Source: Patescibacteria group bacterium (lineage in GTDB: Bacteria; Patescibacteriota; Microgenomatia; JAMCZE01). From it: a stretch of 64,000 nt of DNA. The stretch covers positions 42,458 through 106,457 of the forward strand of contig JAMCRP010000002.1 of NCBI GenBank assembly GCA_023380635.1. Direction: 5' to 3'. The notes beneath the pieces were generated by a model that was not told the origin of the DNA, made no database searches, and saw nothing but the letters and a program-made list of their open reading frames with translations. Positions 1-44,586 of this stretch are shown piece by piece. Made by a program: the position numbers and the translations under genes. Numbering within the stretch: position 1 is the stretch's first letter; every line of letters starts with the position of its first letter.

Positions 1-2
1 TC

Positions 3-1166: not shown

Positions 1167-1189
1167 TAAACAGCAATTCAGGTTCCACA

Positions 1190-1224
1190 AAAAAGAGACC
1201 TGTGTTTCAAGGTCTCCTTTTTTA
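1190..1224. terminator. bidirectional rho-independent terminator hairpin between convergent genes
   Basis: aaaaagagacc-tgtgtttca-aggtctcctttttt: an 8-bp GC-containing stem with an A-run upstream and a T-run downstream. It sits between the stop of the TPR gene (1166) and the stop of the minus-strand zinc-ribbon gene (1237). Confidence 0.7.
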
Positions 1225-1236
1225 CGAAGGCCCGTT

Positions 1237-1566: not shown

Positions 1567-1593
1567 TTAGAGTTTCACCACCTTCCGTTGTTG

Positions 1594-1627
1594 ATTCCAG
1601 TGGTCTCAATCGCGCCTCCACTGGAAT
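1594..1627. promoter_or_regulatory. inverted repeat in the divergent leuS / zinc-ribbon promoter region (operator candidate)
   Basis: attccagtgg(1594-1603) ... ccactggaat(1618-1627) form perfect 10-bp arms with a 14-bp spacer; the flanks extend the palindrome (gaattcc). Confidence 0.35.
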
Positions 1628-1694
1628 TCCAGGAATAGGTCGAAAACGAGGACTGGTAGGTTAATTATGGCATAGAATATAATAGAATGCAAAC

Positions 1695-4319
1695 ATGACT
1701 AAATACGACCCGGCAAAAATTGAAGGGAAATGGCGGGAAGAGTGGGAAAAGACAGGTTTGTATCAGGCAATTGATTTTGATAAAAAGCCCAAATACTACG
1801 CTTTAACCGAATTTCCGTATCCTTCCGGCGAGGGCTTGCACATGGGCCATGTCTTTAGTTATGGCACCCCGGATATCTTTGCCCGCAAGAAGCGGATGGA
1901 AAGGTTTAATGTTCTTTTTCCGATCGGTTGGGATGCCTTTGGATTACCGACGGAAAACTACGCTGTCAAAACCGGGATTCAGCCGGTAGTCGTCACCAAA
2001 AATAACACTGATCGCTTCCGAGAGCAGATGAAATCGCTGGGTCTGTCCTTTGATTGGAGCCGGGAAATTAACACTACCGACCCCAACTATTATAAATGGA
2101 CCCAGTGGATTTTTACTCAGCTGTTTAAAAACGGTCTGGCCTACAAAAGCGAGACGCCGGTGGGGTGGTGCCCGTCATGCAAGATTATTCTGGCCAACGA
2201 GGAAATCGTTAACGGCAAGTGCGAGCGCTGCGGAACTGTTGCTCAGCAGCGAAAGCAGAGTCAATGGGTCCTGCGCATCACCTCCTACGCGGACAGGCTG
2301 GACAAGGAACTGGATCTGGTGGATTACCCGGACATGGTCAAAGCTTCCCAGCGCAACTGGATCGGGAGAAAAGAAGGTGCCAAGATAAGCTTTAAGATAC
2401 AAGATACAAGAAACAAGACACACGAGATAATGATCTTCACCACGCGGCCGGACACCATCTATGGCGCGACTTTTATTGTCTTGGCCCCCGAGCATCCTTT
2501 GGCCATTGAGCTCGCGAAAACCGATCAGAAGATCGCAGACTATATCAAAACGGTTAATCGGGAAGAAGTTAGTCTGGTAAAAACAGGGGTAGAAACAGAA
2601 CTAAAAGCCGTTAATCCGGCCAGCGATAAAGAAATTCCCGTTTGGGTTTCGGACTATGTTTTGGCCGAAGCGGGCACCGGAGCGATCATGGGAGTGCCGG
2701 CTCATGACGAGCGGGACTACGAGTTTGCCGGGAAATTTAATTTACCGATAATCAGGGTTGTAACTGGTCCGGATGGAAGTAACGCTCCAATTAACCAAGT
2801 GTCTGAGGTTTTCACGGGAACCGGGGAGATGATTAATTCAGATGATTATAACGGGCTGGAATCTCCTGTCGCTTTTGAGAAAATTGTGGAAGACTTAAAA
2901 AAGCGCGGTCTGGCGACATTTTCAACCACTTATCATTTGCGTGACTGGATTTTTTCCCGGCAGCATTACTGGGGAGAACCTATCCCCATGGTTTATTGCG
3001 AGAAATGCGCCAAGGGAGGAATTTCCTGGTGGGACACAAAGGAAGGTAAGGCCTTTAAGCCTCTGTTTAACCCTCTCGAGCCGGAGCATTTTGATAGCAG
3101 GGGGGTGCTGGTTAATTTGGCCGGCTGGTTCCCGGTCCCGGAGTCCAAACTGCCGGTGACGCTTCCGGAAGTGGAATACTATCAGCCCACGGATACCGGC
3201 GAATCTCCTCTGGCAAAGATCAAGAATTGGGTTGAAGTAGCTTGCCCTGAGTGTGGAGGACCTGCACGAAGGGAGACGGACACCATGCCCAACTGGGCCG
3301 GTTCCAGCTGGTATTATTTGCGCTTTTCCGACCCGACTGCTAAGACGGAATTGGCTGATCCGAAGAAGCTGAATTATTGGCAGCCGGTCGATGTTTATTT
3401 TGGTGGAGCAGAGCACAATACCTTACACTTGCTGTATTCCCGGTTCTGGCACAAATTTCTTAATGACCTAGGGAGAGTTCCGGGAAAAGAACCCTACAAA
3501 GCTCGCCGCCAGCATGGGCTTATCCTGGCCGAGGATGGAACGAAGATGAGTAAATCCAAAGGAAATGTGATCAATCCCGATCAAATGGTTTCAAAGTATG
3601 GCGCAGATGCGGTGCGCACCTTTCTGTCTTTTGTCGGACCCTACGACCAAACCTTGCCCTGGAGCACGGCCGGGGTCGAAGGTGTCCGGCGCTTCCTGAA
3701 TAGGGTCTGGACCATCTATCAAAACGACCAAAAGATTGCTAATTCGAGCTCACCGGAACTTATTGCCAAACTTAACTGGGCGATTAAGCGGACAGGCGAG
3801 GGGATTGATAACCTGAAGCAGAATACGGGAGTAGCGGCCTTGATGGAGTTTCTTAATCTTTGGGAAAAGACAGGAGCTTTAAGCCGAGAGGACGCCGGGA
3901 AATTCCTGCGGCTCCTGGCTCCTTTCGCTCCGTTTTTGGCGGAAGAGCTCTGGCAAAGATATGTTGCGGGTCCTGTCCCGCTTTATCCCTCCCGCCAGTG
4001 CTCGCCCGAAGAGCTGCGCGCTGTCGGGAGCCCTTCCAAGCGTGCCACCCGCATAAAGAAAATAAAATCTATACATCTCGAGCCTTGGCCTGAGGTCGAA
4101 GAAGGCGGCCTAGAGGAAAAAGAAGCGACGATCGCCATCTCAATTAACGGCAAAACCCGGGCAACTTTGCAAATTAGCGCTCCACAGGCTCAAGCGTTAG
4201 ATGAAGCACGGGTTGTCGCCATGGCCAAATCGGTCGAAAAGATCGCAGAATACCTAAAAGGTAAGAGCATTAAGAGGACCGTGTATGTCCCCGGCAAAAT
4301 TTTAAACTTCGTCGTCTAA
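1695..4319 (+). CDS. leuS: leucyl-tRNA synthetase
   Basis: Class I HIGH motif (HMGH) and KMSKS are present, with collinear LeuS architecture and an editing-domain region. Residues ~757-795 (YVAGPVPLYPSRQCSPEELRAVGSPSKRATRIKKIK) are an extra segment between the conserved EELWQR and SIHLEPWPEV blocks. Confidence 0.95.
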   Translation: MTKYDPAKIEGKWREEWEKTGLYQAIDFDKKPKYYALTEFPYPSGEGLHMGHVFSYGTPDIFARKKRMERFNVLFPIGWDAFGLPTENYAVKTGIQPVVVTKNNTDRFREQMKSLGLSFDWSREINTTDPNYYKWTQWIFTQLFKNGLAYKSETPVGWCPSCKIILANEEIVNGKCERCGTVAQQRKQSQWVLRITSYADRLDKELDLVDYPDMVKASQRNWIGRKEGAKISFKIQDTRNKTHEIMIFTTRPDTIYGATFIVLAPEHPLAIELAKTDQKIADYIKTVNREEVSLVKTGVETELKAVNPASDKEIPVWVSDYVLAEAGTGAIMGVPAHDERDYEFAGKFNLPIIRVVTGPDGSNAPINQVSEVFTGTGEMINSDDYNGLESPVAFEKIVEDLKKRGLATFSTTYHLRDWIFSRQHYWGEPIPMVYCEKCAKGGISWWDTKEGKAFKPLFNPLEPEHFDSRGVLVNLAGWFPVPESKLPVTLPEVEYYQPTDTGESPLAKIKNWVEVACPECGGPARRETDTMPNWAGSSWYYLRFSDPTAKTELADPKKLNYWQPVDVYFGGAEHNTLHLLYSRFWHKFLNDLGRVPGKEPYKARRQHGLILAEDGTKMSKSKGNVINPDQMVSKYGADAVRTFLSFVGPYDQTLPWSTAGVEGVRRFLNRVWTIYQNDQKIANSSSPELIAKLNWAIKRTGEGIDNLKQNTGVAALMEFLNLWEKTGALSREDAGKFLRLLAPFAPFLAEELWQRYVAGPVPLYPSRQCSPEELRAVGSPSKRATRIKKIKSIHLEPWPEVEEGGLEEKEATIAISINGKTRATLQISAPQAQALDEARVVAMAKSVEKIAEYLKGKSIKRTVYVPGKILNFVV

Positions 4320-4705
4320 AGTCGGAGTTACCTCGGAGTAATTACTATCACCAAAAGCGTCTGAGCAGGAATAATCACATTTAGCGACGCCAGGCAGGAA
4401 TAGAGATCCGCGAAAAGAGGTCCCGAGAAGCCTGAGCAAAACCAATCAAAATGCATCAATAGTTAGCTTCACGGATGGTTTCACAAAATAGAGCGGAGTA
4501 GGCAGGGAATTTTTCACGGATAGCGGGATAGAACATGGGGCATAGTACTATTATGGTGCGCCGAATGGTGCGAAAACCCAAGCAATTAACGCAAAGTAAT
4601 CGAGCGTATTTCCGCAAGATTACTGATGGCGAAAACAGGGCGAATAACCCTATCCAACCAGAACAATACCGATCAACGAAAGATTTTTAGGTCGGAGAGA
4701 TAAAA

Positions 4706-5962
4706 GTGTGCTACATTAGTCTTATGACCCGTTTTTATTTCCTGCTTTTGGGTCTTCTCCTTTTGCGGCTGGGTCTGTTCTTTACAGTTACGAGGTCACA
4801 GCAGACTTTACCGGTAGGAACCAAAGTCAGGCTTATAGGAATGCTGGAAGCCGAGCCGAAGGTGTCGGGGAGCCAGGCTAAGTATAGTCTCGGTGGTTAC
4901 ACAATCTTGACAGCGAAGGAGCCGGAAGTGCATTTCGGCGACCAGGTTGAACTTATCGGCAAAGTTGGCAACCAGGGCAGACTTTATTATCCGGAGGTCA
5001 AAATAGTTACTCCCGGCGCGACCGGTTTTTGGTGGAAGATAGCCGCTCAGATCCGTTCAAAAGTCATCAGAATATATCAACAAACCATGCCAAAAGCGGA
5101 AGCAGACCTGTTATCCGGCATTGTCCTGGGCAGTCAGTCACTGGACCGCAGCTTTAAGGCCAAACTGGCTCTGGTCGGGTTAACCCATGTGGTTGCTGCC
5201 TCAGGAATGAATGTCAGCTTCTTTTCGGTTGCCGTTTCCGGCCTGCTAAGCGGGATTTGTCCGGGAAAGAAGCTTAAGTTTCTACTTTCAGAGGTCTTTA
5301 TTCTTTTTTATACCACAATGACCGGGTTTGAACCGCCGATAGTGCGCGCGGCGCTTATGGCCGCCTTTTCTCATGTTCAGATTTTGACCGGGCGGAGTTC
5401 GAGCTCATTTGCCGGTTTGGGCGTAGCCGCCTTTCTAATGTTATGGGCCAGCCCGGATCTGGTTGTCAATCCGAGTTTTTTGCTCTCATTTTCCGCCATG
5501 ACGGGCCAGATTTGCCTTAGCAGCCTCAGGCTCAACCTGCCAAAAATTGCCGCTTCAATTACATCTGTAATTCTCCAGAGTTTAGCGGCCCTGGTGGCTA
5601 CTTTCCCTATAGTTTTAATCTTTTTTGCCAATTTTTCACTGATCGCTCTTTTCACAAACGCCGTGGTGCTTTGGACAATTGAGCCGCTAATGGTCCTCGG
5701 AACTGCCATTGCCACGCTCGGAATTTTTTTCATGCCGATTTCACAAGCGTTAGGCGTGCCTGCCCAGGGTCTGCTGGATTTTTTCCTTTGGGTCGTCAAC
5801 ACTTTCGGTCAGTCAGACCTGACCCAGCGGCTGCAGATAAGTTACACCTTCCAAGATAATCTCTCCGCCTTCTTCTTTGCCGCTGGATATTATACTTTAC
5901 TCGTAGGGGGTATTTGGTTCTGGCGCCAGAGAAGGGTACTCACTATAATAAAAATGAAATGA
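4706..5962 (+). CDS. comEC: ComEC/Rec2-like DNA-internalisation channel protein (competence domain only; no C-terminal metallo-beta-lactamase domain)
   Basis: Polytopic membrane protein with the ComEC competence-domain signature LLSGIVLGSQSLDRSFKAKLALVGLTHVVAASGMNVSF. The stop TGA (5960-5962) overlaps the argS start. Confidence 0.6.
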   Translation: MCYISLMTRFYFLLLGLLLLRLGLFFTVTRSQQTLPVGTKVRLIGMLEAEPKVSGSQAKYSLGGYTILTAKEPEVHFGDQVELIGKVGNQGRLYYPEVKIVTPGATGFWWKIAAQIRSKVIRIYQQTMPKAEADLLSGIVLGSQSLDRSFKAKLALVGLTHVVAASGMNVSFFSVAVSGLLSGICPGKKLKFLLSEVFILFYTTMTGFEPPIVRAALMAAFSHVQILTGRSSSSFAGLGVAAFLMLWASPDLVVNPSFLLSFSAMTGQICLSSLRLNLPKIAASITSVILQSLAALVATFPIVLIFFANFSLIALFTNAVVLWTIEPLMVLGTAIATLGIFFMPISQALGVPAQGLLDFFLWVVNTFGQSDLTQRLQISYTFQDNLSAFFFAAGYYTLLVGGIWFWRQRRVLTIIKMK

Positions 5963-7650
5963 TTACTCTCGACATAAGAAAAAAGATCCTTCAAGCTGCT
6001 AAGCAAGCATTTCCCCAAACAGAGATTAATGAGGAAGATATTAATCTCGAACATCCGGGACTGGATGAACATGGGGACTACAGCACCAATATTGCCCTGA
6101 GGCTGGGTAAGCAAGTCGGCATGAAACCGGTGGAAGTGGCAAAAAGAATTGTCCAGACCTTGTCAGACGCTGACAGGCTCTGGCAGAAAGTGGAGATTGC
6201 CGGGCCGGGATTTATTAACTTCACTCTATCTACCGCTACTCTTGTCGATCAAATGGAACAAGCGCTAAAGGGCGGCGAGCGCTACGGGAGTTCAGAGCAT
6301 GGGCAGGGGCTAACCATGGTAATAGACTATTCCGCTCCTAACATTGCCAAGCGGTTTGGGATCGGCCATCTGCGCTCTACAATCATTGGCCATGCCCTCT
6401 ATAACCTCTACCAATTCCAGGGCTACAAAACCATCGGCGACAACCATCTGGGCGACTGGGGGACACAGTTTGGCAAGATTTTATACATGATTGAAACGGA
6501 GAAGCCGAAAGAGCTAACAGTGGATAAACTAGAAGAACTGTATGTTAAGTTCCATCAACTAGCGGAAGCTGATCCGAAGCTGGAAGAAAAAGGGCGCGAG
6601 TGGTTTAAAAAGTTGGAAGATGGAGAGCCGAAGGCCAGAGAGTTATGGAAAAAATGCGTCGAAGTTTCCATGGCGGAATTTAACCGGATTTATGCTCTGC
6701 TCGGCGTCAAAATTGACTATGCCTACGGCGAAAGCTTTTACGAAAAAGAGATGCCGGGAGTCATTGCTGACGCCAAGGCTAAAGGATTGGCCAAACAAAG
6801 CGACGGGGCTACTATAATCGAAATTCCCGGACTGAAGGCGCCGTTGCTTCTGGTGAAAAGCGACGGAACCACTACCTACGCTACCAGAGACCTGGCGACC
6901 CTAAAATTCCGCAAAGAGACCTGGAACCCGGACCTAGTGATTTATGAAGTTGGGGCCGAGCAGGCGCTCCATTTTCAGCAGGTCTTTGTCGCGGCAAAAA
7001 TGTTGGGCTACCTTAAACCCGGTGAAGAGCTGAGGCACACCAAACACGGCTTGTACCGGTTGCCTTCCGGAAAATTTAGTACCCGCAAAGGCAACACTCC
7101 CAAGCTCGAAGAAATTTTAGACGAAGCGATCGACCGGGCGAAAAAACTGGGCAGCCAGGATCAAAAAACGGCCGAAGCCGTCGGTATCGGAGCAATAAAG
7201 TATTTTGACCTGATGCATAGTGTCCAAAGTGATATTATTTTTGATTGGGAAAAAATGTTTAATCTGCAAGGCGACTCGGGGCCATACCTTCAATACTCCT
7301 ACGCACGGGCAAGAAGCGTGCTGCGCAAAGCCGGACTACAGACTACGGACTACCGACTACAGAAAAATAATAAAACTGTAGACAGTAGTCAGTGGTCAGT
7401 AGTCAATGAAGAGCTGGCTGTTTTGCGCTACCTTTATCGTTTTCCCGAGGTGGTGGAGGCGGCGGCGCGAAGCTACAGTCCGAACCTGGTGGCCGGGTAT
7501 CTGTTTGAACTGGCCAAGCGCTACAATAATTTTTACAACAGCCAACCAATAATTGGTAATGACTTCAGGCTAGCCTTGACCGCGGCCACCGCCATTGTCC
7601 TCAAAAACGGCCTGAATTTATTGGGGATCGAGGTGCTTGACAAAATGTAA
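5959..7650 (+). CDS. argS: arginyl-tRNA synthetase
   Basis: DYSAPNIAKRFGIGHLRSTIIGHALYNLY (class I HIGH region of ArgS), with an anticodon-binding C-terminus. The proposed start ATG at 5959 (MITLDIRKK) forms an ATGA overlap with the comEC stop; the longest ORF starts at 5914. It contains an extra low-complexity segment (RLQKNNKTVDSSQWSVVN) encoded by an imperfect inverted repeat. Confidence 0.93.
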   Translation: MITLDIRKKILQAAKQAFPQTEINEEDINLEHPGLDEHGDYSTNIALRLGKQVGMKPVEVAKRIVQTLSDADRLWQKVEIAGPGFINFTLSTATLVDQMEQALKGGERYGSSEHGQGLTMVIDYSAPNIAKRFGIGHLRSTIIGHALYNLYQFQGYKTIGDNHLGDWGTQFGKILYMIETEKPKELTVDKLEELYVKFHQLAEADPKLEEKGREWFKKLEDGEPKARELWKKCVEVSMAEFNRIYALLGVKIDYAYGESFYEKEMPGVIADAKAKGLAKQSDGATIIEIPGLKAPLLLVKSDGTTTYATRDLATLKFRKETWNPDLVIYEVGAEQALHFQQVFVAAKMLGYLKPGEELRHTKHGLYRLPSGKFSTRKGNTPKLEEILDEAIDRAKKLGSQDQKTAEAVGIGAIKYFDLMHSVQSDIIFDWEKMFNLQGDSGPYLQYSYARARSVLRKAGLQTTDYRLQKNNKTVDSSQWSVVNEELAVLRYLYRFPEVVEAAARSYSPNLVAGYLFELAKRYNNFYNSQPIIGNDFRLALTAATAIVLKNGLNLLGIEVLDKM

Positions 7651-7675
7651 ATATAAGCCCTAATATTTAAGGCGT

Positions 7676-8002
7676 ATGAATGAACCAAAGGCTGATTCCA
7701 ACTTGAAACCCGGTGAACATCCCTTGCCTGACCTTAAAGCGGAATATCTGAGGATGACCAGAAAACAGACCGGGAGTGAGCCTTGGACGGAGGATGATGC
7801 CAAGTATCTTAATAATTTGAGAGCGGCGATGGAAACACCAACGGCCACTAGTCTTACCCCCCAAGAGCAGAGTGCGCTGAACCGACAAGGGGGAGCTTCC
7901 TTGGACAAGAATGTGGTCTGGAGTAAGGAAGATTTAGCGGCTGCGGGCCGGGCACACGATAAGCTAAACCAAGAGAAAAAAATAAGCCTCAAAGCTTCTT
8001 AG
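7676..8002 (+). CDS. hypothetical protein
   Basis: 108-aa ORF in a gene-dense co-directional context; charged, no recognisable motif. Confidence 0.4.
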   Translation: MNEPKADSNLKPGEHPLPDLKAEYLRMTRKQTGSEPWTEDDAKYLNNLRAAMETPTATSLTPQEQSALNRQGGASLDKNVVWSKEDLAAAGRAHDKLNQEKKISLKAS

Positions 8003-8040
8003 TCTTGACATACGAGCCTATAGTCTGCTAAGATACTGGT

Positions 8041-8346
8041 ATGAATTCTTTCAAAAATCACGAACTAATTCGTCTCTATCCTGACGCAATTTCAGTCCGG
8101 AAGGTTTCCGGTTTAAAAATGTTTTTTCGGGAACACCGGGAAGCAATTGGAAATACGGCGTTGGCAGGTTGCTTAATCTTAGGCTTCCTGGCCGGAGAAG
8201 GAATGTTGCATGTGAGTGTCGAAAACAACGCCCTTTTAACCGGTTTTCCGGAACTTAAGACACTGGCGCCGATTGTTCTTGGCTTAATGGCAGGAGCATT
8301 TACCGGCGGATCGATCCGTCAGGCTATTATTAAAAAAGATTCTTAA
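8041..8346 (+). CDS. hypothetical small membrane protein
   Basis: 101 aa with two hydrophobic helices (LAGCLILGFLAGEG, LAPIVLGLMAGAFTGG). Confidence 0.4.
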   Translation: MNSFKNHELIRLYPDAISVRKVSGLKMFFREHREAIGNTALAGCLILGFLAGEGMLHVSVENNALLTGFPELKTLAPIVLGLMAGAFTGGSIRQAIIKKDS

Positions 8347-8415
8347 AAGTAATAACTGCGTAACAACTTCGTTATCAGGATTGTAATTCTCATAAATGGC
8401 CGTTAAAATGGCGGC

Positions 8416-9675
8416 ATGTACTCCAAAACGGTACTTCCGACGGGACTTCGCTTAGTCTCTATTCCCATGCCCGCGGTCAAAACGGCCACGGCTTTAATTA
8501 TGGTCGAAGCCGGGAGCCGCTACGAAACGGCCCGAATCAACGGCATTTCCCATTTTCTGGAACACATGATTTTTAAGGGGACGAAAAACCGGCCCAACTC
8601 TTTGGCTATTAGCTCTCTGATTGACGGCATCGGCGGTTCGTTTAATGCTTTCACTTCCAAGGAATACACCGGTTTTTATGTGAAGGCGGAAAGCGCCCAT
8701 CTGCCGCTGGTTCTTGATGTCCTGTCAGATATGCTCCTGAACTCTTTATATAATCCTGAAGAACTGAACCGGGAACGGGGTGTCATTATTGAAGAAATAA
8801 ACATGTACGAAGACCAGCCCCAGGCTCGGGTCGGGGAATATTTTGAGGAGTTGCTTTATGACAACCATCCGCTGGCCCGCCAGGTGGTCGGAACCAAGGA
8901 AGTTATCGAAAAAGTGAGCCGGCAAGACATGGTGGATTATGTCAAAAAGATGTACCACAGCAAGGCGATTGTTGTGGGACTGGCAGGAGATATTGCTTCA
9001 AGTTCCAAACTGGCAGAGAAGTACTTTGACAATGTCCCGAAAGGAAATGAGAACGAATACCTGGCCGTGGAAGAAAACCAGACGAAGCCGGGCAGTCTAG
9101 TACATTACAAAAAAACTGACCAGGCGCATATGTGCGTGGGAGTGCGCGCATACGACATGAACCACCCGGACCGGTATGTGGTCGAAGTGCTGGCGACAAT
9201 TTTAGGCGGAAACATGAGCAGCCGAATGTTTATTGAAGTCCGGGAAAAACGAGGTTTGGCCTATTATGTCCACACGGATAACGAAGAATTTCATGATGCC
9301 GGGTACCTTATGACCCAGGCGGGAATCAGATTAAACAATGTCGACGAGGCGGTAAAAGTGATACTGGAGCAATATGGGAAGATCAGGGACATTAAAGTTA
9401 AAGAAGAAGAATTAAAAAGGGCGAAAGACTACGCGAAAGGCAAAATGGCTCTGGCTTTGGAGGATTCCTTCCGGGTGGCCAGCTTCTATACTTCCCAGGA
9501 ACTCCTGCGCAAGGAAATTGAAACGCCGGAAGAGGTTTTAAAAAAGATCGAAGCGGTGACGGCAGAAGACATTCAAAGGGTCGCAAAAGATATCTTTGTG
9601 AATCAAAAACTGAACCTGGCTATAATTGGACCTTTTGAAGACTCCAAACGCTTCGATTTGCTCTTGAAACTCTAA
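8416..9675 (+). CDS. M16-family (pitrilysin/insulinase-like) zinc peptidase
   Basis: Inverted zinc-binding motif HFLEHMIFKGT (HxxEH) near the N-terminus; ~420-aa two-domain M16 layout. Confidence 0.85.
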   Translation: MYSKTVLPTGLRLVSIPMPAVKTATALIMVEAGSRYETARINGISHFLEHMIFKGTKNRPNSLAISSLIDGIGGSFNAFTSKEYTGFYVKAESAHLPLVLDVLSDMLLNSLYNPEELNRERGVIIEEINMYEDQPQARVGEYFEELLYDNHPLARQVVGTKEVIEKVSRQDMVDYVKKMYHSKAIVVGLAGDIASSSKLAEKYFDNVPKGNENEYLAVEENQTKPGSLVHYKKTDQAHMCVGVRAYDMNHPDRYVVEVLATILGGNMSSRMFIEVREKRGLAYYVHTDNEEFHDAGYLMTQAGIRLNNVDEAVKVILEQYGKIRDIKVKEEELKRAKDYAKGKMALALEDSFRVASFYTSQELLRKEIETPEEVLKKIEAVTAEDIQRVAKDIFVNQKLNLAIIGPFEDSKRFDLLLKL

Positions 9676-9677
9676 CT

Positions 9678-9717
9678 TAAGTATCTTAAGATACTTAAGT
9701 TACTTAAGATTCGTAAG
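9678..9717. repeat. tandem 9-bp 'nnnCTTAAG' array (4 units) immediately upstream of ndk
   Basis: tatcttaag atacttaag ttacttaag attcgtaag; period 9; ends 1 bp before the ndk ATG. Confidence 0.8.
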
Positions 9718-10299
9718 ATGGAACGGACTGTAGTTCTTGTCAAACCTGATGGCGTCAAGCGTGGCCTCGTGGGGGAAATTGTGGGCCGCTTCGAGAAAGT
9801 CGGCCTCAAAATCGTGGCGATGAAAATGGTGTGGGTGGATGAGGAATTAGCTGGTAAACATTATCCCACCAGCCGGGCCGATTGGGTTAAAAAGGTCGGT
9901 GACAGGACTTTGGGTTCCTATAAAGAATACGGCCAGGACGCCAACGAGTTGTTGGGGACTATGGATCCGGTAGAAGTGGGGAAATTGGTTTGTAAGTGGT
10001 TGGTGGGATTTTTGACCGGCGGCCCGGTCGTGGCCATGGTTTTGGAAGGCCCGCACGCAGTGGAAATAGTTCGCAAAATGGTTGGACATACGTATCCGCT
10101 TAAAGCAAATCCTGGGACAATCCGCGGGGATTTAATGATCGACAGTCCGGCGGTTTCCAACACTAAAAAACGTGCCATCCAAAATCTGGTTCATGCATCC
10201 GGAAGCCCGGAAGAAGCGAAGTTTGAAATGGAACTGTGGTTCCATAAAAACGAGATTCACGACTACAAACGCGTTGATGAAGAATTAATGTTTGGCTAA
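9718..10299 (+). CDS. ndk: nucleoside diphosphate kinase (long form with a ~45-aa insertion)
   Basis: MERTVVLVKPDGVKRGLVGEIVGRFEKVGLKIVAMKM and the later NxxHASGS-type region; 193 aa versus ~140 aa in a typical Ndk. Confidence 0.9.
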   Translation: MERTVVLVKPDGVKRGLVGEIVGRFEKVGLKIVAMKMVWVDEELAGKHYPTSRADWVKKVGDRTLGSYKEYGQDANELLGTMDPVEVGKLVCKWLVGFLTGGPVVAMVLEGPHAVEIVRKMVGHTYPLKANPGTIRGDLMIDSPAVSNTKKRAIQNLVHASGSPEEAKFEMELWFHKNEIHDYKRVDEELMFG

Positions 10300-10395: not shown

Positions 10396-10446
10396 CAAAA
10401 CTTGCTTAAGAGTCTTAAGTGCCTTAAGATACTTAAGGAGCTTAGG
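10396..10446. repeat. tandem 9-bp 'nnnCTTAAG' array (5 units) upstream of an avd-like gene
   Basis: ttgcttaag agtcttaag tgccttaag atacttaag gagcttagg; period 9. Confidence 0.8.
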
Positions 10447-10454: not shown

Positions 10455-11027
10455 ATGGTCTCCAAACTGCCGCCACACAAGTATCTTCTTTCTTACCGTT
10501 ACACAGAATTGACTCATGACGGGACAGTGCAGTTCACGGCAAGGTTTTTAAGCGATATTATCCATCGGCGGACGCGCGAACAGATGGACCAGGCAGCCCG
10601 TTCCGGTAAACAAAATATTGTTGAGGGTTTTGGGCGCGACCTGACTTCGAAAAAAAGCGAGATTACCTTGCTTGATGTTGCCCGGATGTCACTTGAGGAG
10701 CTGACAACTGATTATGAAGATTTTCTAAGACAGAGAAACTTGGCCATTTGGCCAAAAAATGACCCGCGGATAATGAGATTTCGGGAGCTTGGTTTTCGTC
10801 TAAGCAACGAGATAAATTTGGATAAATCAGGCACTTTTAAAGAGAAACTGGCTTTACCTGCTGATTCTGAAGTAGCTGCTAATTTAATGCTAACCTTGTG
10901 CCACCAAGCTTCTTATTTGCTTTTTCGTCAGATCAAGGCGGTGGAAAACCGGCTGATTCAGGAAGGGGGTTATTCGGAAAACCTGTATCGCCGGCGCGAA
11001 GAATTTCGTAGAAATAACCTTAAGTGA
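10455..11027 (+). CDS. four-helix-bundle protein (23S rRNA IVS protein / DGR Avd-like family), long form
   Basis: AARSGKQNIVEGFGRDLTSKKSEITLLDVARMSLEEL matches the family core (R-S-x-SI-x-NI-x-EG-x-GR ... FL-x-IA-x-GS-x-EL). Paralogous to 37211..37813. Confidence 0.7.
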   Translation: MVSKLPPHKYLLSYRYTELTHDGTVQFTARFLSDIIHRRTREQMDQAARSGKQNIVEGFGRDLTSKKSEITLLDVARMSLEELTTDYEDFLRQRNLAIWPKNDPRIMRFRELGFRLSNEINLDKSGTFKEKLALPADSEVAANLMLTLCHQASYLLFRQIKAVENRLIQEGGYSENLYRRREEFRRNNLK

Positions 11028-11084
11028 TAAAATGAGCGTAGCGAATTTTACTAACCGAACGAAAGTGAGGTGTTTAAAATTCAC

Positions 11085-11110
11085 TTAAGGAACTTAAGGC
11101 ACTTAAGTTG
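11085..11110. repeat. tandem 9-bp 'nnnCTTAAG' array (3 units) upstream of tRNA-Arg
   Basis: tcacttaag gaacttaag gcacttaag; ends 6 bp before the tRNA. Confidence 0.75.
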
Positions 11111-13185: not shown

Positions 13186-13236
13186 GGTATCCTGATTTTA
13201 TCACAGTTGCTATAATGTTCCTAATCGACCCTCTCA

Positions 13237-13345
13237 ATTTGAAATTTACAATTTACAATTTGAAATAAATATCAAATTTGAATTTTTTGAATTTGAAGAA
13301 TTGAAATTTCATTGAAAATTTCAAAGTTCAAATTTCAAATTTTGT
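13237..13345. repeat. A/T-rich 8-bp periodic 'AATTT(G/C)AA' array immediately upstream of mreB
   Basis: caatttgaaatttacaatttacaatttgaaat...gaatttgaagaattgaaatttcattgaaaatttcaaagttcaaatttcaaatttt. Confidence 0.8.
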
Positions 13346-13347: not shown

Positions 13348-14481
13348 ATGTTTGGTAAGCGCCTTGGTATCGATCTCGGCACCGCTAACTCTCTGGTTTA
13401 TGTCGTGGACCAGGGAGTTGTGGTTAATGAGCCGACGGTGGTGGCCGTGGCCGTTGACGACGGCAAAGTGCTGGCGGTTGGCAACGAAGCCAAGCAGATG
13501 ATGGGCCGAACCCCAGGAAATATCCGGGCGTCCCGGCCGATGCGCGACGGCGTCATTGCCGATTATATTGTTACCGAGGCAATGCTGCGCTATTTTCTCG
13601 ATCGGGTCTGCGGTTCGACGCGCTTTTTTAAGCCGGAAGTCATGATTTGCGTTCCGGCGGGGGTTACCCAGGTGGAGCGGCGGGCGGTGCTCGACGCGAC
13701 TTTAAGCGCCGGGGCCAAGGTGGCTTATTTAATTGACGAACCGCTGGCAGCGGCCATCGGCGCCAAAATTCCTATTGCCAACCCGAACGGGAACATGATC
13801 GTCGATATTGGCGGGGGCAGCACGGAAGCGGCGGTAATTTCCCTGGGTGGGGTGGTGGTTCACAAAAGTGCTCGGGTGGCCGGAAACAAAATTGACGAGG
13901 CGATTGCCAACTTCATTAAAAAAAAATATAACCTCTTAATCGGGGACACGACAGCGGAGGATATCAAGATTCAGATCGGGACAGCTGTGCCGCTTGGGAA
14001 GTCTCAGTCATCAGTTCTCGGTGGTCGGTTTTCGGAATCTGGTTCGTCAGTTAACCAGTTTTCAGTCCACAAAACTGAAAACAGAAAGACTGAAAAACCG
14101 GAAACTGAAGACAGACAACTGAAAACCGATAGCCGGACCATGGAAGTCCGGGGCCGGGACGCCGCGAGCGGCCTTCCAAGGATCATTGAATTCACTTCTG
14201 ATGAGGTAGTTGAGGCCGTCACACCAATACTTTCGCAAATTGTCACTGCTGTGAAGGGAGTGCTAGAGGAAACGCCCCCGGAATTGGCTTCAGACATAAT
14301 CGATAGGGGAATCGTGCTCAGCGGAGGTACTTCACTCCTTCGAAATTTGGATAAACTGATGACCCATACTATTGGTGTTCCGGTTCATACAGCCGATGAC
14401 CCTCTGTTTTGTGTGGTTAAGGGGTGCGGCATCGCCATGGAGAACATCGATTTATACAAACGGAGCATTAGCAAGAGGTAA
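13348..14481 (+). CDS. mreB: rod-shape-determining protein MreB (actin-like ATPase) with a low-complexity insertion
   Basis: GIDLGTANSLVYV, GVIADY and IDIGGGSTE actin-fold motifs. The listed ORF starts at 13312 inside the A/T repeat; the MreB-like start MFGKRLGIDLG is at 13348. A ~45-aa insertion (SQSSVLGGRFSESGSSVNQFSVHKTENRKTEKPETEDRQLKTDSRT) is encoded by an imperfect palindrome at ~14000-14140. Confidence 0.9.
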   Translation: MFGKRLGIDLGTANSLVYVVDQGVVVNEPTVVAVAVDDGKVLAVGNEAKQMMGRTPGNIRASRPMRDGVIADYIVTEAMLRYFLDRVCGSTRFFKPEVMICVPAGVTQVERRAVLDATLSAGAKVAYLIDEPLAAAIGAKIPIANPNGNMIVDIGGGSTEAAVISLGGVVVHKSARVAGNKIDEAIANFIKKKYNLLIGDTTAEDIKIQIGTAVPLGKSQSSVLGGRFSESGSSVNQFSVHKTENRKTEKPETEDRQLKTDSRTMEVRGRDAASGLPRIIEFTSDEVVEAVTPILSQIVTAVKGVLEETPPELASDIIDRGIVLSGGTSLLRNLDKLMTHTIGVPVHTADDPLFCVVKGCGIAMENIDLYKRSISKR

Positions 14482-14554: not shown

Positions 14555-14592
14555 CATTTTTGAAAATTTCGAATTTCAAATTTCAAATTGCG
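14555..14592. repeat. A/T-rich 8-bp periodic 'AATTT(G/C)AA' array downstream of mreB
   Basis: gaaaatttcgaatttcaaatttcaaattgcg. Confidence 0.7.
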
Positions 14593-20302: not shown

Positions 20303-21097
20303 TTGTCTCTAATGAGAAAAGTTGTCTTGGGCGTTAATATTGATGATATTTCGAAAGAAGAAGCCCTTAGTCTGGTCAGTAGTTGGTTAACTGGTAAACT
20401 AGAGACTAGTAAACCAGCGACCAGCAAACTGGTGTTCACTCCCGGGCCGGAGTTTTTAGTAACGGCGGACAAAGACGCGGAATTTAAAAAAGTTTTAAAC
20501 TCTTCAGACTTGAATCTTCCGGACGGTTTTGGGTTAAAACTTTTGGGTGGCGTGGAGCATACCATTGCCGGGGTCGACTTTGTCAGAGTTCTTTGCCAAC
20601 TGGCAGCTAAAAACGGCTGGACTGTCGGCCTGCTGGGCGGACAAACCGGCATTGCCCGGCTGGCGGCTAAAAATTTGCAAAAAAGCTATCCCGGGTTAAA
20701 AGTTACTTTCGCTTTTGACGGGCCCGCAGCTGACAAAATCCTGACACATTCCGACACATTGCCATATAGTGATATTCTGTTTGTAGCCTTTGGACACCCT
20801 GCTCAAGAAAAATTTCTCGCAGAGCAGAAAGCGTCAAGCGTAAAGCGTAAAGAAGGAAGACTTGACGCTAAACGCTTTCCGCTAAACGCCATCCCGTTCC
20901 GCATCGGTATAGGTGTCGGCGGCAGCTTTGATTTTATTTCCGGGACTGTGCCCGAACCGCCGGTTATGTTAAAGAGATTAGGACTAAAATGGTTAGGCCG
21001 GCTTCTGAGCAGGCCGGCTTATATGGCCCCTAAAGTTTTCCGGGCCATTGTTTCTTACCCCCTTTTGATATTGAATTCCCGTCTCTGTAGCCGTTAA
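20303..21097 (+). CDS. WecB/TagA/CpsF-family glycosyltransferase (N-acetylmannosaminyltransferase-like)
   Basis: GVNIDDISKEEALSLV...TPGPEF...DLNLPDGFGLKLLGG...RVLGVDFV...GWTVGLLGGQTGIA...YPGLKV: collinear with the WecB/TagA fold family. Carries an extra SSVKRKEGRLDAKRFPLNAIPFR segment. Confidence 0.7.
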   Translation: MSLMRKVVLGVNIDDISKEEALSLVSSWLTGKLETSKPATSKLVFTPGPEFLVTADKDAEFKKVLNSSDLNLPDGFGLKLLGGVEHTIAGVDFVRVLCQLAAKNGWTVGLLGGQTGIARLAAKNLQKSYPGLKVTFAFDGPAADKILTHSDTLPYSDILFVAFGHPAQEKFLAEQKASSVKRKEGRLDAKRFPLNAIPFRIGIGVGGSFDFISGTVPEPPVMLKRLGLKWLGRLLSRPAYMAPKVFRAIVSYPLLILNSRLCSR

Positions 21098-37210: not shown

Positions 37211-37813
37211 GTGGCAAAAGCTGGTTTCGAATATCTTCTTGCCTACAAAATCACGGTGCCGATCTACGATTACACTGTGGCTTTCTGCAATTGTTACCCG
37301 CCGTTAGCTCCTAATCATCCTAATTTCTCCAATTTTTCCTATCCTCGTCTCTCTTCAACCCGAACCTATGACCAAATGATTCAGTCGGCACGGTCGGGGA
37401 TGACTAATTTGGCTGAAGGTCATCAGCAGCAAAGCCTTGAAGGCTATATTAAACTTTCAGGAGTTAACAGAGCCTCATTAGAAGAACTTTTAAAAGATTA
37501 TTTAGCTTTTGCCAGACAGAACCATCTAGAGGTCTGGCCAAAAGAGAGATCAAGAAGAGAAATTCGAGAAATTGGAGAAATATGGGGAATCTTAACAAGA
37601 ACTTCGACACTGCCGGACAACCCAAATTTTCCGCCGCTTCCAAACGACCCAACCAAAGCGGCGAATTTTATGATTACTCTGATTAATCAAGCCAATTACC
37701 TGCAGGATCGTTTGAATCTTGCTTTAGAAGACAAATTTGTTAAGGAAGGCGGTTTTCGGGAGAATCTTTTCAAAAAACGGATGGCTTACCGCAATAAAAA
37801 AAGTCCCGCTTAA
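37211..37813 (+). CDS. four-helix-bundle protein (Avd-like family), long form; paralogue of 10455..11027
   Basis: MIQSARSGMTNLAEGHQQQSLEGYIKLSGVNRASLEELLKDYLAF and C-terminal EGGFRENLFKKRMAYRNKK; collinear with the 10455 gene (EGGYSENLYRRREEFRRN). Confidence 0.7.
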   Translation: MAKAGFEYLLAYKITVPIYDYTVAFCNCYPPLAPNHPNFSNFSYPRLSSTRTYDQMIQSARSGMTNLAEGHQQQSLEGYIKLSGVNRASLEELLKDYLAFARQNHLEVWPKERSRREIREIGEIWGILTRTSTLPDNPNFPPLPNDPTKAANFMITLINQANYLQDRLNLALEDKFVKEGGFRENLFKKRMAYRNKKSPA

Positions 37814-37853: not shown

Positions 37854-38237
37854 TTATTTCAATTCTGCAGTGGCTCCGGCAGCCTCCAGTTTTTTCTTAG
37901 CTTCTTCTGCAGTGGCTTTGTTCACTCCTTCGACGACATTCTTGGGAGCGGATTCCACCAAAGTCTTCGCTTCAGCCAGGCCCAGGGTCGGGACGACTTC
38001 GCGAACGGCTTTAATGACGGAAATCTTGTTGGCACCGGCGTTAGTCAGAACAACATTGAAAGTTGTCTGTTCCTCAGCGGGACCCGCCTCCGCTGAAGCT
38101 CCGGCGGGCGAAGCCGCTACTGAAACCGCGGCAGCGCTCACACCAAACTTTTCCTCGAGAGCTTTGACGAGCTCAGCCACCTCGAGAACAGTCATTTTTT
38201 CGACTTCGTCAACGATTTTTTGAGTTTTATCAGACAT
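37854..38237 (-). CDS. rplL: 50S ribosomal protein L7/L12
   Basis: [33 protein letters not shown]...Ala-rich hinge...[31 protein letters not shown]...ELK. Confidence 0.95.
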
Positions 38238-38931: not shown

Positions 38932-39759
38932 CTAAACGGCCACTTTCACTGCCGGACCCATGGTGGGTTTGACGAAGGCGGTTTTAATTTTGTCTTTGCC
39001 GACGGCTTTAGTCAGGGCGGCAAAGTTGTCCTCGAGCTTTTTGGGTTCGAAAGAGACCTTACCGATAATCGTATGGATAATCGGGAAGTCAGCTTCGGTT
39101 TTCCAGTTAATCTGGCCCTTGGACAAAGTTTCCACTAATTTTTCCGGATTTTCGCCTATCGTGCCGGTTTTGGGGTTGGGCATCAAACCTTTTGGTCCCA
39201 GGATCTTGGCCACTCGGGCCAATTTGGGCATCATGCTCGGATGGGCCACCAAAATATCAAAATCGATCGAACCGCCCTTAGATAAATTCTCGATTAGGGC
39301 GTCATCAGCAACTTTTACTTTGATTTGTTTGCCGGTGCCGTGGGGCAAAGCCACCATCCCGCGCAGGCCCTTTTCGGTGACATTAAGATGCAATTCTACT
39401 GTGCCGTCGAACTTCGAATAAGAAGTTTTCTTGACTAAATCGAGAGCCTCTTTAAGAGAGTAAACCTTTTTCTTGTCAACTAAACCCCGAACTTCGAGAT
39501 ATTTTTTACCTCGGATATTCTTGACGGCGGAAAGCGGATTTTTTTGATCTTGATGTTTTAATGTCTTGATCTCTTGATCTGATTTTTCTGCTTTCAAGGG
39601 TTCCTGGTCAAGAGTTCTGTCTTCTGTCTTCAAAACATCCTTTTTAGGAACTTTGGCAGCTTTCTCGGCTTTTTTTTGAGCGCGTTTGGCTTCCGCCTTT
39701 TTGCGGGCGGCTTCTTCAGCTTCAATATCTCCCATGATGGCGGTTTTTACTTTACCCAT
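38932..39759 (-). CDS. rplA: 50S ribosomal protein L1 with a ~65-aa Lys/Ala/Glu-rich N-terminal extension
   Basis: GKKYLEVRGLVDKKKVYSLKEALDLVKKTSYSKFDGTVELHLNV aligns with the canonical L1 N-terminus. It is preceded by MGKVKTAIMGDIEAEEAARKKAEAKRAQKKAEKAAKVPKK... with no alternative in-frame ATG before the L1 core. Confidence 0.9.
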   Translation of the reverse strand: MGKVKTAIMGDIEAEEAARKKAEAKRAQKKAEKAAKVPKKDVLKTEDRTLDQEPLKAEKSDQEIKTLKHQDQKNPLSAVKNIRGKKYLEVRGLVDKKKVYSLKEALDLVKKTSYSKFDGTVELHLNVTEKGLRGMVALPHGTGKQIKVKVADDALIENLSKGGSIDFDILVAHPSMMPKLARVAKILGPKGLMPNPKTGTIGENPEKLVETLSKGQINWKTEADFPIIHTIIGKVSFEPKKLEDNFAALTKAVGKDKIKTAFVKPTMGPAVKVAV

Positions 39760-43241: not shown

Positions 43242-43305
43242 ACTAATTGCTAAATTGTTTCATTGTTACATTGTTAAATTATTAGCAATGTAGCCATGTA
43301 GCAAT

Positions 43306-44586
43306 ATGACAATGGAGGGATTGGCTAATAAAAAAATCTTAGCGGCAATAGCTATCAGCCTTATTTTGGTTGCGGGTTTGGTGGCGGGGGTTGTTCTGGT
43401 GAAGCGTCAGCAGGATATCCGGTCCAAAGCGGCGTCGGCCGGTTGTACTAATGCCCGCTGGCCGGCTGACCCGAATACTGCCTGTGGTAAAAGCACTCAG
43501 CAACCAGCCCAAAGTGCCACCGGAGTTTCCTTAACTCCGGACTTTGCTTGGGGTTATGGCGGCTATCGTCCTGAAGATAATGGGCAGTGTACCACGGATT
43601 TTGGTTGTTCCCACCAAAATTACGGCGTTTCTGTTTACCTATTTGAAGGTAACCAGGCGACGACAGCTTTTGCCCGGGCCGACAGTATGAATGTTCCCAT
43701 ACTGCCAACTTCAATGAGTTTTAGCAAGTTCAAAAAGTGCGACGGTTCGCCGTCTTGTCATACTGACGGCCAACCGGCTATCACCGCTTTAAAGGCCAAT
43801 ACCGTTTATACCTGGCGAGTAACGCCTTATTATGAAGATGCAAACGGACAATTAATTGTCCATGCGGAACAGACTTATAATTACAACTTTACTACCGGAG
43901 CTCCCCAACCGCCAAATTGCGTCAGTTTAACTACCACGGCTGATCTGACTAATTTGCAGGTTGGCAGTCAGTACACTTTCTCGCTGACAGCCAGCGGGAC
44001 AGTGACGGACGTTTCTTTGAGTGCTTATACCGGCAGCTGTCCTAGTTCGCCGCCGGAAATTGACAAGCAGTCAGCCAGTGCCGGAACTTATTCCTTAAAG
44101 TGGACGCCGACGGCGGCCGGAACGTACACCGTTTTTGGCCGGGTCTGGAATGACAGCCAGGTCGAATGCCGCGCCGACTGTGTTGACGGGCCGCCACGGA
44201 TTCTTTGTGATGGCGCATCTGCCTGCAAACTGACGGCGACGGTTAAAACTCCTCCGGTCCCGCCGGCAGTGACCGCCGCTTGCCAAAATGTCCAGGCTGA
44301 TAAGGATTTATCTACCCTCAAAGTCGGTGACACAGTTACTTTTACCGGTCGGGGAACGCTTACTAACAATCAGACAGCTGGCAGCGCCATTGACAAAATT
44401 AAATTTATTGTCCTTAAGGACGGAACGGAAGTTTTAAACACTGATGTAAATACGACTCAGGAAACAGGTGCTAATGATGTCGTTCAGACTTGGAAAGCGA
44501 GCCAAGCCTACACGATTACTGCTGCCGGAACTTACTCAGTTCGCATCAAAGTCCATTGGAATACACAAGATATTTGGCTCGAATAA
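43306..44586 (+). CDS. exported/membrane-anchored hypothetical protein (Ig/Fn3-like beta-rich, Cys-containing)
   Basis: N-terminal signal anchor (ILAAIAISLILVAGLVAGVVLV); T/S/G-rich beta-strand-like repeats; paired cysteines. Confidence 0.45.
   Translation: MTMEGLANKKILAAIAISLILVAGLVAGVVLVKRQQDIRSKAASAGCTNARWPADPNTACGKSTQQPAQSATGVSLTPDFAWGYGGYRPEDNGQCTTDFGCSHQNYGVSVYLFEGNQATTAFARADSMNVPILPTSMSFSKFKKCDGSPSCHTDGQPAITALKANTVYTWRVTPYYEDANGQLIVHAEQTYNYNFTTGAPQPPNCVSLTTTADLTNLQVGSQYTFSLTASGTVTDVSLSAYTGSCPSSPPEIDKQSASAGTYSLKWTPTAAGTYTVFGRVWNDSQVECRADCVDGPPRILCDGASACKLTATVKTPPVPPAVTAACQNVQADKDLSTLKVGDTVTFTGRGTLTNNQTAGSAIDKIKFIVLKDGTEVLNTDVNTTQETGANDVVQTWKASQAYTITAAGTYSVRIKVHWNTQDIWLE

Follow-up and report, generated by a model that had tools for sequence, protein, structure and literature searches.

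Palindromes built of heptamer arrays lie in frame within conserved genes of a Microgenomates bacterium and resemble Rickettsia palindromic elements

In a 64,000-nucleotide (nt) stretch of a Patescibacteria genome (GenBank assembly GCA_023380635.1, contig JAMCRP010000002.1, positions 42,458 to 106,457; the whole stretch is called the window here), the genes argS, mreB and wecG each contain, in frame, a hairpin whose arms are made of tandem units of about 7 nt. That these heptamer hairpins are real features of the window genes is confirmed. In our judgment it is rather probable that the three segments are members of a kind of element widespread in Microgenomates, here termed heptamer-array palindromes, and that these are non-autonomous selfish DNA resembling the Rickettsia palindromic elements (RPEs). 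The bacterium is ultra-small and belongs to the Microgenomates within the Patescibacteria, or candidate phyla radiation (CPR), and to our knowledge the in-frame palindromic invasion of essential genes has so far been regarded as a peculiarity of Rickettsia. The original prediction, made from the letters of the window, had noticed palindromes in argS, mreB and possibly leuS and had proposed a phenomenon analogous to RPEs. This proposal is now supported by the absence of the mreB and wecG inserts from the closest syntenic relative, by hypervariable loops, by the same architecture elsewhere, and by a dispersed sequence family that we call class A.

The comparison covered 64 kb of the present genome together with short flanking regions from relatives (172 fetched loci, given below by L numbers; proteins carry P numbers). 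NCBI proteins under the name 'Patescibacteria group bacterium' match the window ArgS and MreB at 100% identity, and the best relatives of the window are metagenome-assembled genomes of Microgenomates, Woesebacteria, Levybacteria, Shapirobacteria and Gottesmanbacteria. Two loci are of particular use: L082, an independent Logan assembly of SRR10278331 that represents the same genome as the window, and L081 (GCA_964641255.1), the closest syntenic relative, with the gene order leuS-comEC-argS-M16 ... PEGA-mreB-wecG. L082 matches window positions 1-9702 with 0 mismatches. Because an independent assembly is identical there, the argS and leuS structures are genuine, and an assembly artefact is excluded as their origin. 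A folding scan of the whole window returned just 16 outliers with z <= -3, among them the argS, mreB and wecG segments. RNA folding of the segments themselves, a check proposed at the outset, gave z -6.98 for argS, -6.2 for mreB and -3.8 for leuS.

The argS gene (5959..7650, + strand), whose product is 100% identical to P0001, 'arginine--tRNA ligase [Patescibacteria group bacterium]', holds a hairpin of 71 nt at 7334-7404 that is among the best-ranked regions of the window in a palindrome scan. On the plus strand, its 5' arm (7334..7362) consists of four tandem GACTACN heptamers of the GA-N5 type (GACTACA, GACTACG, GACTACC, GACTACA and a final G), its apical loop (7363..7375) is the 13-nt, A-rich AAAAATAATAAAA, and its 3' arm (7376..7404) carries the inverted heptamers NGTAGTC in the sequence CTGTAGACAGTAGTCAGTGGTCAGTAGTC. 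The arms are complementary at 24/29 positions, and Tandem Repeats Finder (TRF) reports two arrays of period 7 with 4.3 and 4.0 copies; the four 7-mers followed by an approximate reverse complement had thus been described correctly. The stem is composed of 6-bp blocks with a mismatch at each 7th position, and its folding energy of -33.1 kcal/mol was reached by 0/200 shuffles. There are 0 stop codons in the host frame of the hairpin, as against 2-4 in each other frame. In the 3' arm the sole deviating unit, GTGGTC, stands exactly where, as read from the sequence, an unchanged GTAGTC would give an in-frame TAG.

ArgS has the Pfam domains Arg_tRNA_synt_N (6-90), tRNA-synt_1d (99-430) and DALR_1 (444-563), and the first two DALR-domain helices are joined by the variable loop that holds the hairpin (residues ~459-482). 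Since this loop is present in all ArgS and only a few amino acids (aa) shorter elsewhere (8 aa in E. coli ArgS, ~9-10 aa in most of 119 CPR homologues), the hairpin appears to have overwritten and lengthened a pre-existing variable loop. The extra low-complexity segment of the original prediction therefore stands as a hairpin, but not as a clean insertion of 24 aa, the loop being only 8-10 aa longer than in others. The ArgS loops of relatives contain tandem 13/14-mers (L001, L024), 7-mers (L004, L012), a GC hairpin (L012, L009) or, in L170, a 132-nt heptamer hairpin. The L081 loop is of normal length, 10 aa shorter than that of the window, and L081 argS retains a decayed left arm (GACCACT, GACTATC, AACTACA) followed by a mini-hairpin. 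The GACTACN array had no other occurrence in the window or in the loci fetched at that stage, except in the same-genome L082. A marginal look-alike lies in intergenic Levybacteria DNA (L009 14288-14356; GACTACA/GTCTACA/GGCTACG units; nhmmer E 0.015, both orientations).

Two side observations concern these ArgS proteins and loops. The ArgS of L170 (3001-5403; P0008, 800 aa) has an extra N-terminal insertion of ~230 aa unmatched in other ArgS sequences, and two further ArgS homologues (P0002, P0102) are also ~800 aa long. In Levybacteria, a GC-rich hairpin, CTCGCAAGGCCTNGCCTTGCGAG, is found at L009 11520-11565, L009 15850-15880, L012 4587-4618 and L013 6290-6330, with intergenic copies as well as in-frame copies in the ArgS loop (peptide LARPxLARLE). 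It represents a second palindromic family, similar to the repetitive extragenic palindromic (REP) sequences, that also enters coding DNA.

The mreB gene (13351..14481, + strand, with the ATG at 13351 and not the TTG at 13312 as its true start) carries a palindromic insert at 14004..14136 (+ strand), assigned to a class B and translated ...SQSSVLGGRFSESGSSVNQFSVHKTENRKTEKPETEDRQLKTDS.... Its arms, at 14010-14066 (TC-N5 units) and 14074-14130 (N5-GA units), are 57 nt each, 70% complementary and 7 nt apart, and form the longest inverted repeat of the window; the element measures 121-133 nt. The insertion of about 45 aa that had been claimed for mreB proved to be ~43 aa relative to solved MreBs (query 212-263 versus chain 218-226, with ~8 residues there). 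The window loop has 50 aa versus 6-10 aa in the nearest relatives. Non-Microgenomates MreBs have 8-14 aa there among the matches listed from a metagenome scan with the MreB alignment; those matches were mostly insert-less and from other phyla and served solely as a control of normal loop length. Across 120 homologues the loop, delimited by IGSA and MEVRGRD, varies from 5 to 63 residues, and long and short loops are interleaved among sequences with 80-91% core identity. Modelled by AlphaFold2 from 33 aligned sequences, MreB gave a structure of low quality (mean pLDDT, the predicted local distance difference test, 55), with residues 218-260 modelled as coil at pLDDT < 50. As a separate observation, the top local folding outlier of the whole-window scan (z -5.1) falls in mreB away from the inserts, in the conserved sequence that encodes its N-terminal part (13381-13480).

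The distribution of these inserts among relatives is patchy. The 340-aa MreB of L081 is without an insert, and the mreB insert is also absent from relatives with 90-91% core identity. The class-B insert of the window is homologous to that at the same site in L164, whose MreB core is only 77% identical, and a relative at 86.5% core identity carries class A there; a single mreB site is thus occupied by class A and class B in a patchy manner across lineages. All eight long MreB inserts examined as DNA (window, L163-L167, L171, L172; 144-162 nt) form one long imperfect hairpin each, of ~7-nt units, with fold z between -3.9 and -6.6 for six of the eight, -1.8 for L164 and -0.3 for L171. The window mreB motif had no further occurrence in the window or the loci fetched at that stage. 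The original prediction had suggested a genome-wide search for the 7-mer modules; in the window and fetched loci this had a mixed outcome, as period-7 arrays are abundant but GACTACN and the mreB motif are site-specific, bar the L009 look-alike and L164.

A further hairpin, beyond those predicted in argS, mreB and leuS, was found in the gene for a WecG/TagA-family glycosyltransferase (20303..21097, + strand; Pfam PF03808, E 2.5e-31). It spans 61 nt (20823..20883, + strand), with AAAGCGT units and inverted copies and a lag-7 identity of 0.59, and it gives the protein ~18 aa more than the WecG of L081, which is without the segment. The loop that holds it contains a class-A copy in P0366. In L171 the wecG loop gives a marginal class-A match only (nhmmer E 0.65), with AAGCGT units in the 5' arm as in the window. 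The segments are therefore not ancestral loops devoid of repeat structure elsewhere, as L081 lacks both the mreB and the wecG inserts and the architecture is abundant in other places. The sequence comparisons show that these loops are insertion hot spots across Microgenomates.

Class A, the family on which much of the argument turns, consists of five mutually homologous MreB inserts (L163, L165, L166, L171, L172). Its members are palindromic and ~130-150 nt long, their termini read GACGATAGA...TCTATCGTC, and the whole element is an inverted repeat with an invariant GA per 7 nt in the 5' arm and an invariant TC per 7 nt in the 3' arm. The encoded peptide is [IL]EDRxxK[IL]ExExRxxK...NQxS...SS. 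In an all-against-all comparison, the ArgS-loop insert of L170 was colinear with the class-A mreB inserts over its full length (z 23-34). A class-A nhmmer profile revealed a full-length copy in the WecG/TagA gene of L085 (E 1e-18), a genome with class A in wecG and an MreB without insert. The class-A inserts of mreB, argS and wecG share ~130 nt of colinear homology at ~73% mean column identity; at the DNA level seven copies were available (five in mreB, one each in argS and wecG), and the other hosts were seen as proteins only.

Among 1.84 billion representative proteins, a 42-position class-A peptide profile matched 41 at E <= 0.001, nearly all over the full profile, once per protein and at unrelated positions. 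The 19 hosts scanned with Pfam fall into ~18 protein families: RecF, DnaX, ribosomal protein L1, WecG, an Ndh-type oxidoreductase, topoisomerase I, ribonucleotide reductase, LeuS, ArgS, a ClpB-type AAA+ ATPase, RsmH, NusG, a GH1 glycosidase, an FNR-like reductase, transketolase, a tyrosine recombinase, GT2 and a glycogen synthase/GalT fusion. Where the source is named, it is Patescibacteria or Ca. Gottesmanbacteria. One RecF (P0361, Patescibacteria group bacterium HUD44487.1) has two class-A copies, at residues ~83-122 and ~305-345, the sole direct hint that there may be multiple copies in one genome. By architecture, position and polymorphism, the window elements behave like class A.

These results bear most directly on the possibility of a local mutational by-product, in which 7-nt slippage and template-switch inverted duplication would generate the structures in situ without movement between sites. 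Our first reading, that there was no sequence family and purely local slippage, was of this type, and it was overturned by the all-against-all comparison and the nhmmer search; a purely local origin was dropped because class-A copies recur in argS, wecG and mreB. Several observations agree with local growth: each element has its own unit sequence, the normal-length L081 loop contains the decayed argS left arm, and the argS loops of relatives hold unrelated tandem 13/14-mers and 7-mers. Heptanucleotide arrays, moreover, are the commonest long simple sequence repeats of bacteria, ascribed to polymerase slippage (Mrazek 2007, as cited in PMC4679880), and template switching at quasipalindromes is well established as a source of mutations (PMC7202029). 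What such a process leaves unexplained is the ~130-nt colinear homology among inserts of three genes, the full-length occurrence of a 42-residue profile in 41 proteins whose annotated hosts are unrelated families, and the patchy alternation of class A and class B at one mreB site. Given this cross-gene homology, a local by-product is unlikely as the sole process.

Several points nevertheless weigh against reading the window segments as dispersed selfish elements. The argS, mreB and wecG elements share no sequence with each other, and no second copy of them was found in the 64 kb and the 172 loci apart from the L164 mreB homologue and the marginal L009 look-alike. The decayed GACTAC-like arm of L081 would be explained by duplication and inversion in situ no less well than by an insertion, and the argS hairpin may have grown in place out of an older heptamer array. 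Transposase, RAYT, reverse transcriptase and integrase domains were absent by Pfam from the scanned window open reading frames (ORFs) of at least 100 aa, a set that left out the 4697-aa ORF. No target-site duplications were definable, because empty and filled orthologous sites are too diverged to delimit them. Such duplications around terminal inverted repeats, and a cognate autonomous element or transposase, would mark a miniature inverted-repeat transposable element (MITE); here the whole element is an inverted repeat, and the look for a transposase covered 64 kb of the genome. Translation of the inserts is deduced from the conservation of the frame, and covariation together with deep conservation in mreB could mean a functional structure; both are taken up below.

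The frame was examined in 11 coding hairpins, four in the window and seven in relatives. There are 0 stop codons in the host frame over all of them versus 15-32 in each of the five other frames, and the heptamer inserts show lag-7 identity of 0.41-0.59 with no lag-3 (codon) signal. Excision of the segments from mRNA was rejected as the default because the host frame alone is kept open; the inserts would thus be translated, probably as hydrophilic, disordered segments in surface loops of conserved proteins. This raises the question of whether the peptide itself was selected, the inserts being lineage-specific linkers or interaction surfaces of MreB and ArgS with incidental DNA symmetry. Hydrophilic inserts in surface loops and a recognisably conserved class-A peptide agree with such adaptive insertions, and tandem repeats in Borg proteins are known to create disordered regions (PMC9879509). 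However, selection on a peptide neither makes nor keeps reverse-complementary halves and does not explain the covariation of the arms, unrelated enzymes carry this one peptide at positions that do not correspond, and the same DNA architecture is abundant in non-coding spacers. Complementarity lost while the peptide is conserved would favour adaptive insertion, and the opposite pattern is observed. We therefore regard selection for the peptide as highly improbable.

The arms of class A co-evolve. Covariation was measured with the five mreB inserts of class A, of which two are fairly close to each other, aligned by MAFFT; a protein-guided codon alignment is identical. From this alignment RNAalifold predicts a single hairpin of 37 pairs. 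Paired cells amount to 84.9% versus 76.7% in column shuffles (0/500 reach it), 11/37 pairs are changed on both sides versus 5.7 expected (1/500), and the covariation score is 0.224 versus 0.101 (0/500 shuffles reach it), with slid controls at 0.04-0.13. Many of the double changes are A-U to U-A swaps, and G.U cells are few. In the coding hairpins, transition mismatches on the sense strand include 47 A.C versus 26 G.T (p 0.02), and the antisense strand folds equally well or better in 9/10 of them; in the intergenic hairpins the same wobble test showed no bias (11 versus 8). The asymmetry is a suggestive, weak signal against mRNA-level structure in the coding copies, and we read the A.C excess together with good antisense folding as evidence against selection for an mRNA hairpin.

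A functional nucleic-acid structure has to be weighed against these patterns. The hairpins would then be selected cis-elements, acting in mRNA processing or stability, in ribosome pausing or as sites of a heptamer-binding protein, with coding copies kept for their role. Such a role would account for the significant covariation, for a mreB hairpin retained across lineages whose MreB cores are only ~78% identical, and for the invariance of GA and TC dinucleotides at 7-nt spacing; intergenic arrays also abut start codons, like the TAACTGA arrays of Beggiatoa, proposed sites of post-transcriptional regulators of the Csp or S1 type (PMC4679880). It is less easily reconciled with close relatives that live without inserts, with the hypervariable loop length, and with mismatch and antisense-folding results that are the opposite of mRNA-hairpin selection. 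The A-U/U-A swaps with few G.U intermediates fit templated arm correction, and selfish REPINs also show compensatory changes (PMC3116915). A selected structure thus appears quite improbable to us. The arm patterns are compatible with arm-to-arm correction at the DNA level by quasipalindrome template switching, with selection trimming mRNA stability.

The genomic background of the Microgenomates is rich in arrays of the same period. TRF detected 10.1 period-7 arrays per 100 kb in Microgenomates loci versus 0.3 in other bacterial loci of the same scan (~30x), and 3.1 versus 0.3 per 100 kb for period 8; periods 9 and 12 showed no notable enrichment in that scan. The insert-less L081 has 0 period-7 arrays and just four tandem arrays in 21.7 kb. 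Within the window, arrays of period 7, 8, 14 or 16 are ~6x denser in intergenic than in coding DNA, and their density in coding DNA alone far exceeds the total density in other bacteria. Many short spacers of the window are almost entirely tandem 7-, 8- or 9-nt arrays that reach the next start codon, made of (G)AAATTT(C/G) heptamers, CTTAAGNNN nonamers or ATTGTTAC octamers, often as inverted pairs forming hairpins. The intergenic members, without strand assignment, are represented by the dyad at 13236..13342, which consists of (G)AAATTT(C/G) heptamer arrays and precedes mreB. Others lie at 14564-14589, 20262-20302, 35322-35367, 35766-35797, 38256-38321 and 54121-54218, and a hairpin of ATTGTTAC 8-mers and inverted copies at 43242..43313 ends at the start codon of the gene at 43306.

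The heptamer-array palindromes are 70-160 nt long, and their arms consist of tandem ~7-nt units, frequently of the GA-N5 type on one side and N5-TC on the opposite side. They populate short intergenic spacers, and coding copies persist in permissive surface loops provided that the length is divisible by three and a reading frame stays open. Taken as non-autonomous selfish DNA analogous to RPEs, the elements would occasionally seed new sites and then be inherited vertically for long periods, changing fast through slippage of 7-nt units and arm-to-arm templated correction (quasipalindrome template switching) and frequently being shortened or lost. Within genes only the copies that keep the frame and avoid stops would survive. 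The insert in leuS would go back to a comparable event, involving another type of hairpin that is rich in GC.

A more far-reaching version may also be envisaged, in which the palindromes are a new class of non-autonomous elements specific to Patescibacteria. A dedicated machinery that recognises the 7-nt-periodic GA/TC hairpin would make the elements, move them and keep them symmetric; spacer copies would be a regulatory signal, and the copies in MreB, ArgS, RecF, TopA and others exapted or tolerated spill-over. Such a machinery might be, for instance, a transposase acting on single-strand hairpins or a protein that recognises repeated heptamers. We consider this version unlikely.

Comparison with known systems clarifies in what sense the segments are RPE-like. 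The repeats RPE-1 to RPE-10 (Ogata et al. 2000, as summarised in PMC10969869 and PMC1779305) measure ~100-150 bp; they are interspersed and palindromic and occur in coding as well as intergenic DNA. In the same summaries, they are in frame in unrelated housekeeping genes, including those of aminoacyl-tRNA synthetases, with one open frame and a conserved peptide (PMC10969869, PMC1779305). As far as these accounts go, the size of the mreB element (121-133 nt) and of class A (130-150 nt) fits, the argS (71 nt) and wecG (61 nt) hairpins being shorter. To the same extent, the in-frame position in unrelated genes with a conserved peptide (class A, ~18 host families), presence that varies between orthologues and the lack of a known associated transposase are shared. 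Interspersed similar copies are a likeness for class A in related genomes, but not, within the 64 kb and the 172 loci, for the argS, mreB and wecG elements of the window. The host phylum is also different, being free-living or episymbiotic Patescibacteria instead of obligate intracellular Alphaproteobacteria. The arms here are 7-nt unit arrays with conserved GA/TC at 7-nt spacing and a mismatch at about every 7th position, and the window elements are single-copy in the examined DNA, with a strong length turnover that suggests slippage. We thus see a probable RPE-like phenomenon and not RPEs, likened by behaviour and architecture; a sequence relationship is probably absent.

REPINs are strictly extragenic, contain conserved REPs of 20-40 nt, are linked to RAYTs and show compensatory changes (PMC3116915). 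REPs and REPINs share with the present elements hairpin-forming inverted doublets, compensatory changes, a non-autonomous nature and abundance in short spacers (PMC3116915). Many REPs bear the tetranucleotide GTAG as a tag (GTAG/CGTC-tagged REPs; PMC3733652), and GTAG/CTAC is repeated in the argS arms and present in the L009 units, which we take only as a lead. They differ from the present case in that copies here lie inside argS, mreB, wecG and leuS, the arms are heptamer arrays, and RAYT/Y1-transposase domains are absent from the scanned window ORFs. TAACTGA heptamer arrays occur in Beggiatoaceae, Cyanobacteria and Bacteroidetes, mostly a few nt upstream of start codons, and binding of a translational regulator has been proposed (PMC4679880). 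Like these, the cyanobacterial short tandemly repeated repetitive (STRR) sequences and the long simple sequence repeats of Mrazek 2007, the arrays found here have tandem 7-nt units, are enriched in a lineage and, in the case of the window AAATTTG and CTTAAGNNN arrays, are start-proximal. However, the known arrays are intergenic direct repeats of one fixed heptamer, whereas here many units (GACTACN, AAAACTG, AAAGCGT, AAATTTG and others) form inverted pairs and hairpins, also in frame in genes.

The tandem repeats of Borgs (PMC9879509) are likewise fast-evolving repeats within ORFs that give low-complexity, probably disordered segments, but they are perfect direct repeats with genic unit lengths in multiples of 3, neither palindromic nor part of a dispersed family (PMC9879509). 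Quasipalindrome template-switch mutagenesis (PMC7202029, PMC3820800), in which one arm is corrected against the other, would yield the co-evolution of arms; it is, however, a mutational process and not an element, and dispersal to new genes is not explained by it. No prior description in CPR, Patescibacteria or Microgenomates was found in the searchable literature. The architecture is new, while in-frame palindromic repeats as such were already known from Rickettsia.

An independent and architecturally different counterpart in Microgenomates would make the phenomenon more general than Rickettsia and would provide a concrete source for many unexplained insertions in CPR proteins, tying the evolution of protein loops to a clade-wide excess of 7-nt arrays. 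In practical terms, such segments inflate alignments, can distort trees and predicted structures when CPR marker proteins are analysed, and may serve as fast-evolving markers for strain typing. The covarying mreB element also offers a natural system for studying how long palindromes stay symmetric in an essential gene.

The leuS gene (1695..4319, + strand; Pfam on called genes) presents a different case. Its GC-rich, two-tier hairpin (3965..4053, + strand) lies within an insert of ~30 aa, where the original prediction had seen an extra segment of ~36 aa with a weaker inverted repeat; the hairpin is real, but heptamer units are absent. Since there is no 7-nt periodicity (lag-7 identity 0.28), we assign it to a different type. 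LeuS of the window has 53 aa between AEELW and WPEV versus 22-23 aa in 99/121 homologues, and ~22 of these additional residues are missing from the LeuS of L081. Few other lineages have an insert at this site, and theirs contain GC hairpins or a 36-nt direct repeat. Elsewhere in leuS, an in-frame array of four AAGATAC heptamers (2394..2422, + strand; KIQDTRNKTHE) has no clear inverted partner. The same is true of 7/8-mer arrays at 39548..39631 (- strand) in the N-terminal low-complexity extension of ribosomal protein L1. This extension, K/E/A-rich and ~80 aa long, belongs to the gene at 38932-39759 (- strand), and its counterpart in a further Microgenomates L1 (P0364) holds a class-A copy.

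The gene content of the window includes leuS, comEC, argS, an M16 peptidase, NDK, a sortase, a PEGA protein and mreB, followed by two giant ORFs, the WecG/TagA glycosyltransferase, an L11-L1-L10-L7/L12 cluster and NusG. Rfam at gathering thresholds found two tRNAs only in the whole window. The giant ORFs, at 15552-20261 (1569 aa, with a MerR-type helix-turn-helix near the N-terminus) and 21228-35321 (4697 aa), carry in-frame 7/9-nt arrays at 16198-16264, 21907-21938 and 34948-34982, without a clear inverted partner. NDK (9718..10299) was considered as a carrier of an insert on account of its split Pfam match, and was rejected because its alignment with the long-form NDK 1xqi extends over the full length; it is a 193-aa long form like that of Pyrobaculum, and its apparent insertion relative to short NDKs is a feature of the subfamily.

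Short spacers filled with arrays are also seen at 9676-9717, 10404-10444, 11083-11107 and 38810-38851, and L081 retains a CTTAAG nonamer array upstream of mreB (17443-17477). PF05635 ('23S rRNA intervening-sequence protein'), a family of four-helix bundles, is represented by three genes at 10455-11027, 35368-35733 and 37211-37813, each flanked by short tandem arrays in a manner that resembles small cassettes between housekeeping genes; a PF05635 gene amid 10-mer arrays is found in L165 (1197-1967) too. Between the last of the three window genes, 37211..37813 (+ strand), and the convergent gene 37854..38237 (- strand) lies a canonical bidirectional intrinsic terminator (37795-37828; AAAAAAAGTCCCGCTT/AAGCGGGACTTTCT), followed by a 9-mer array.

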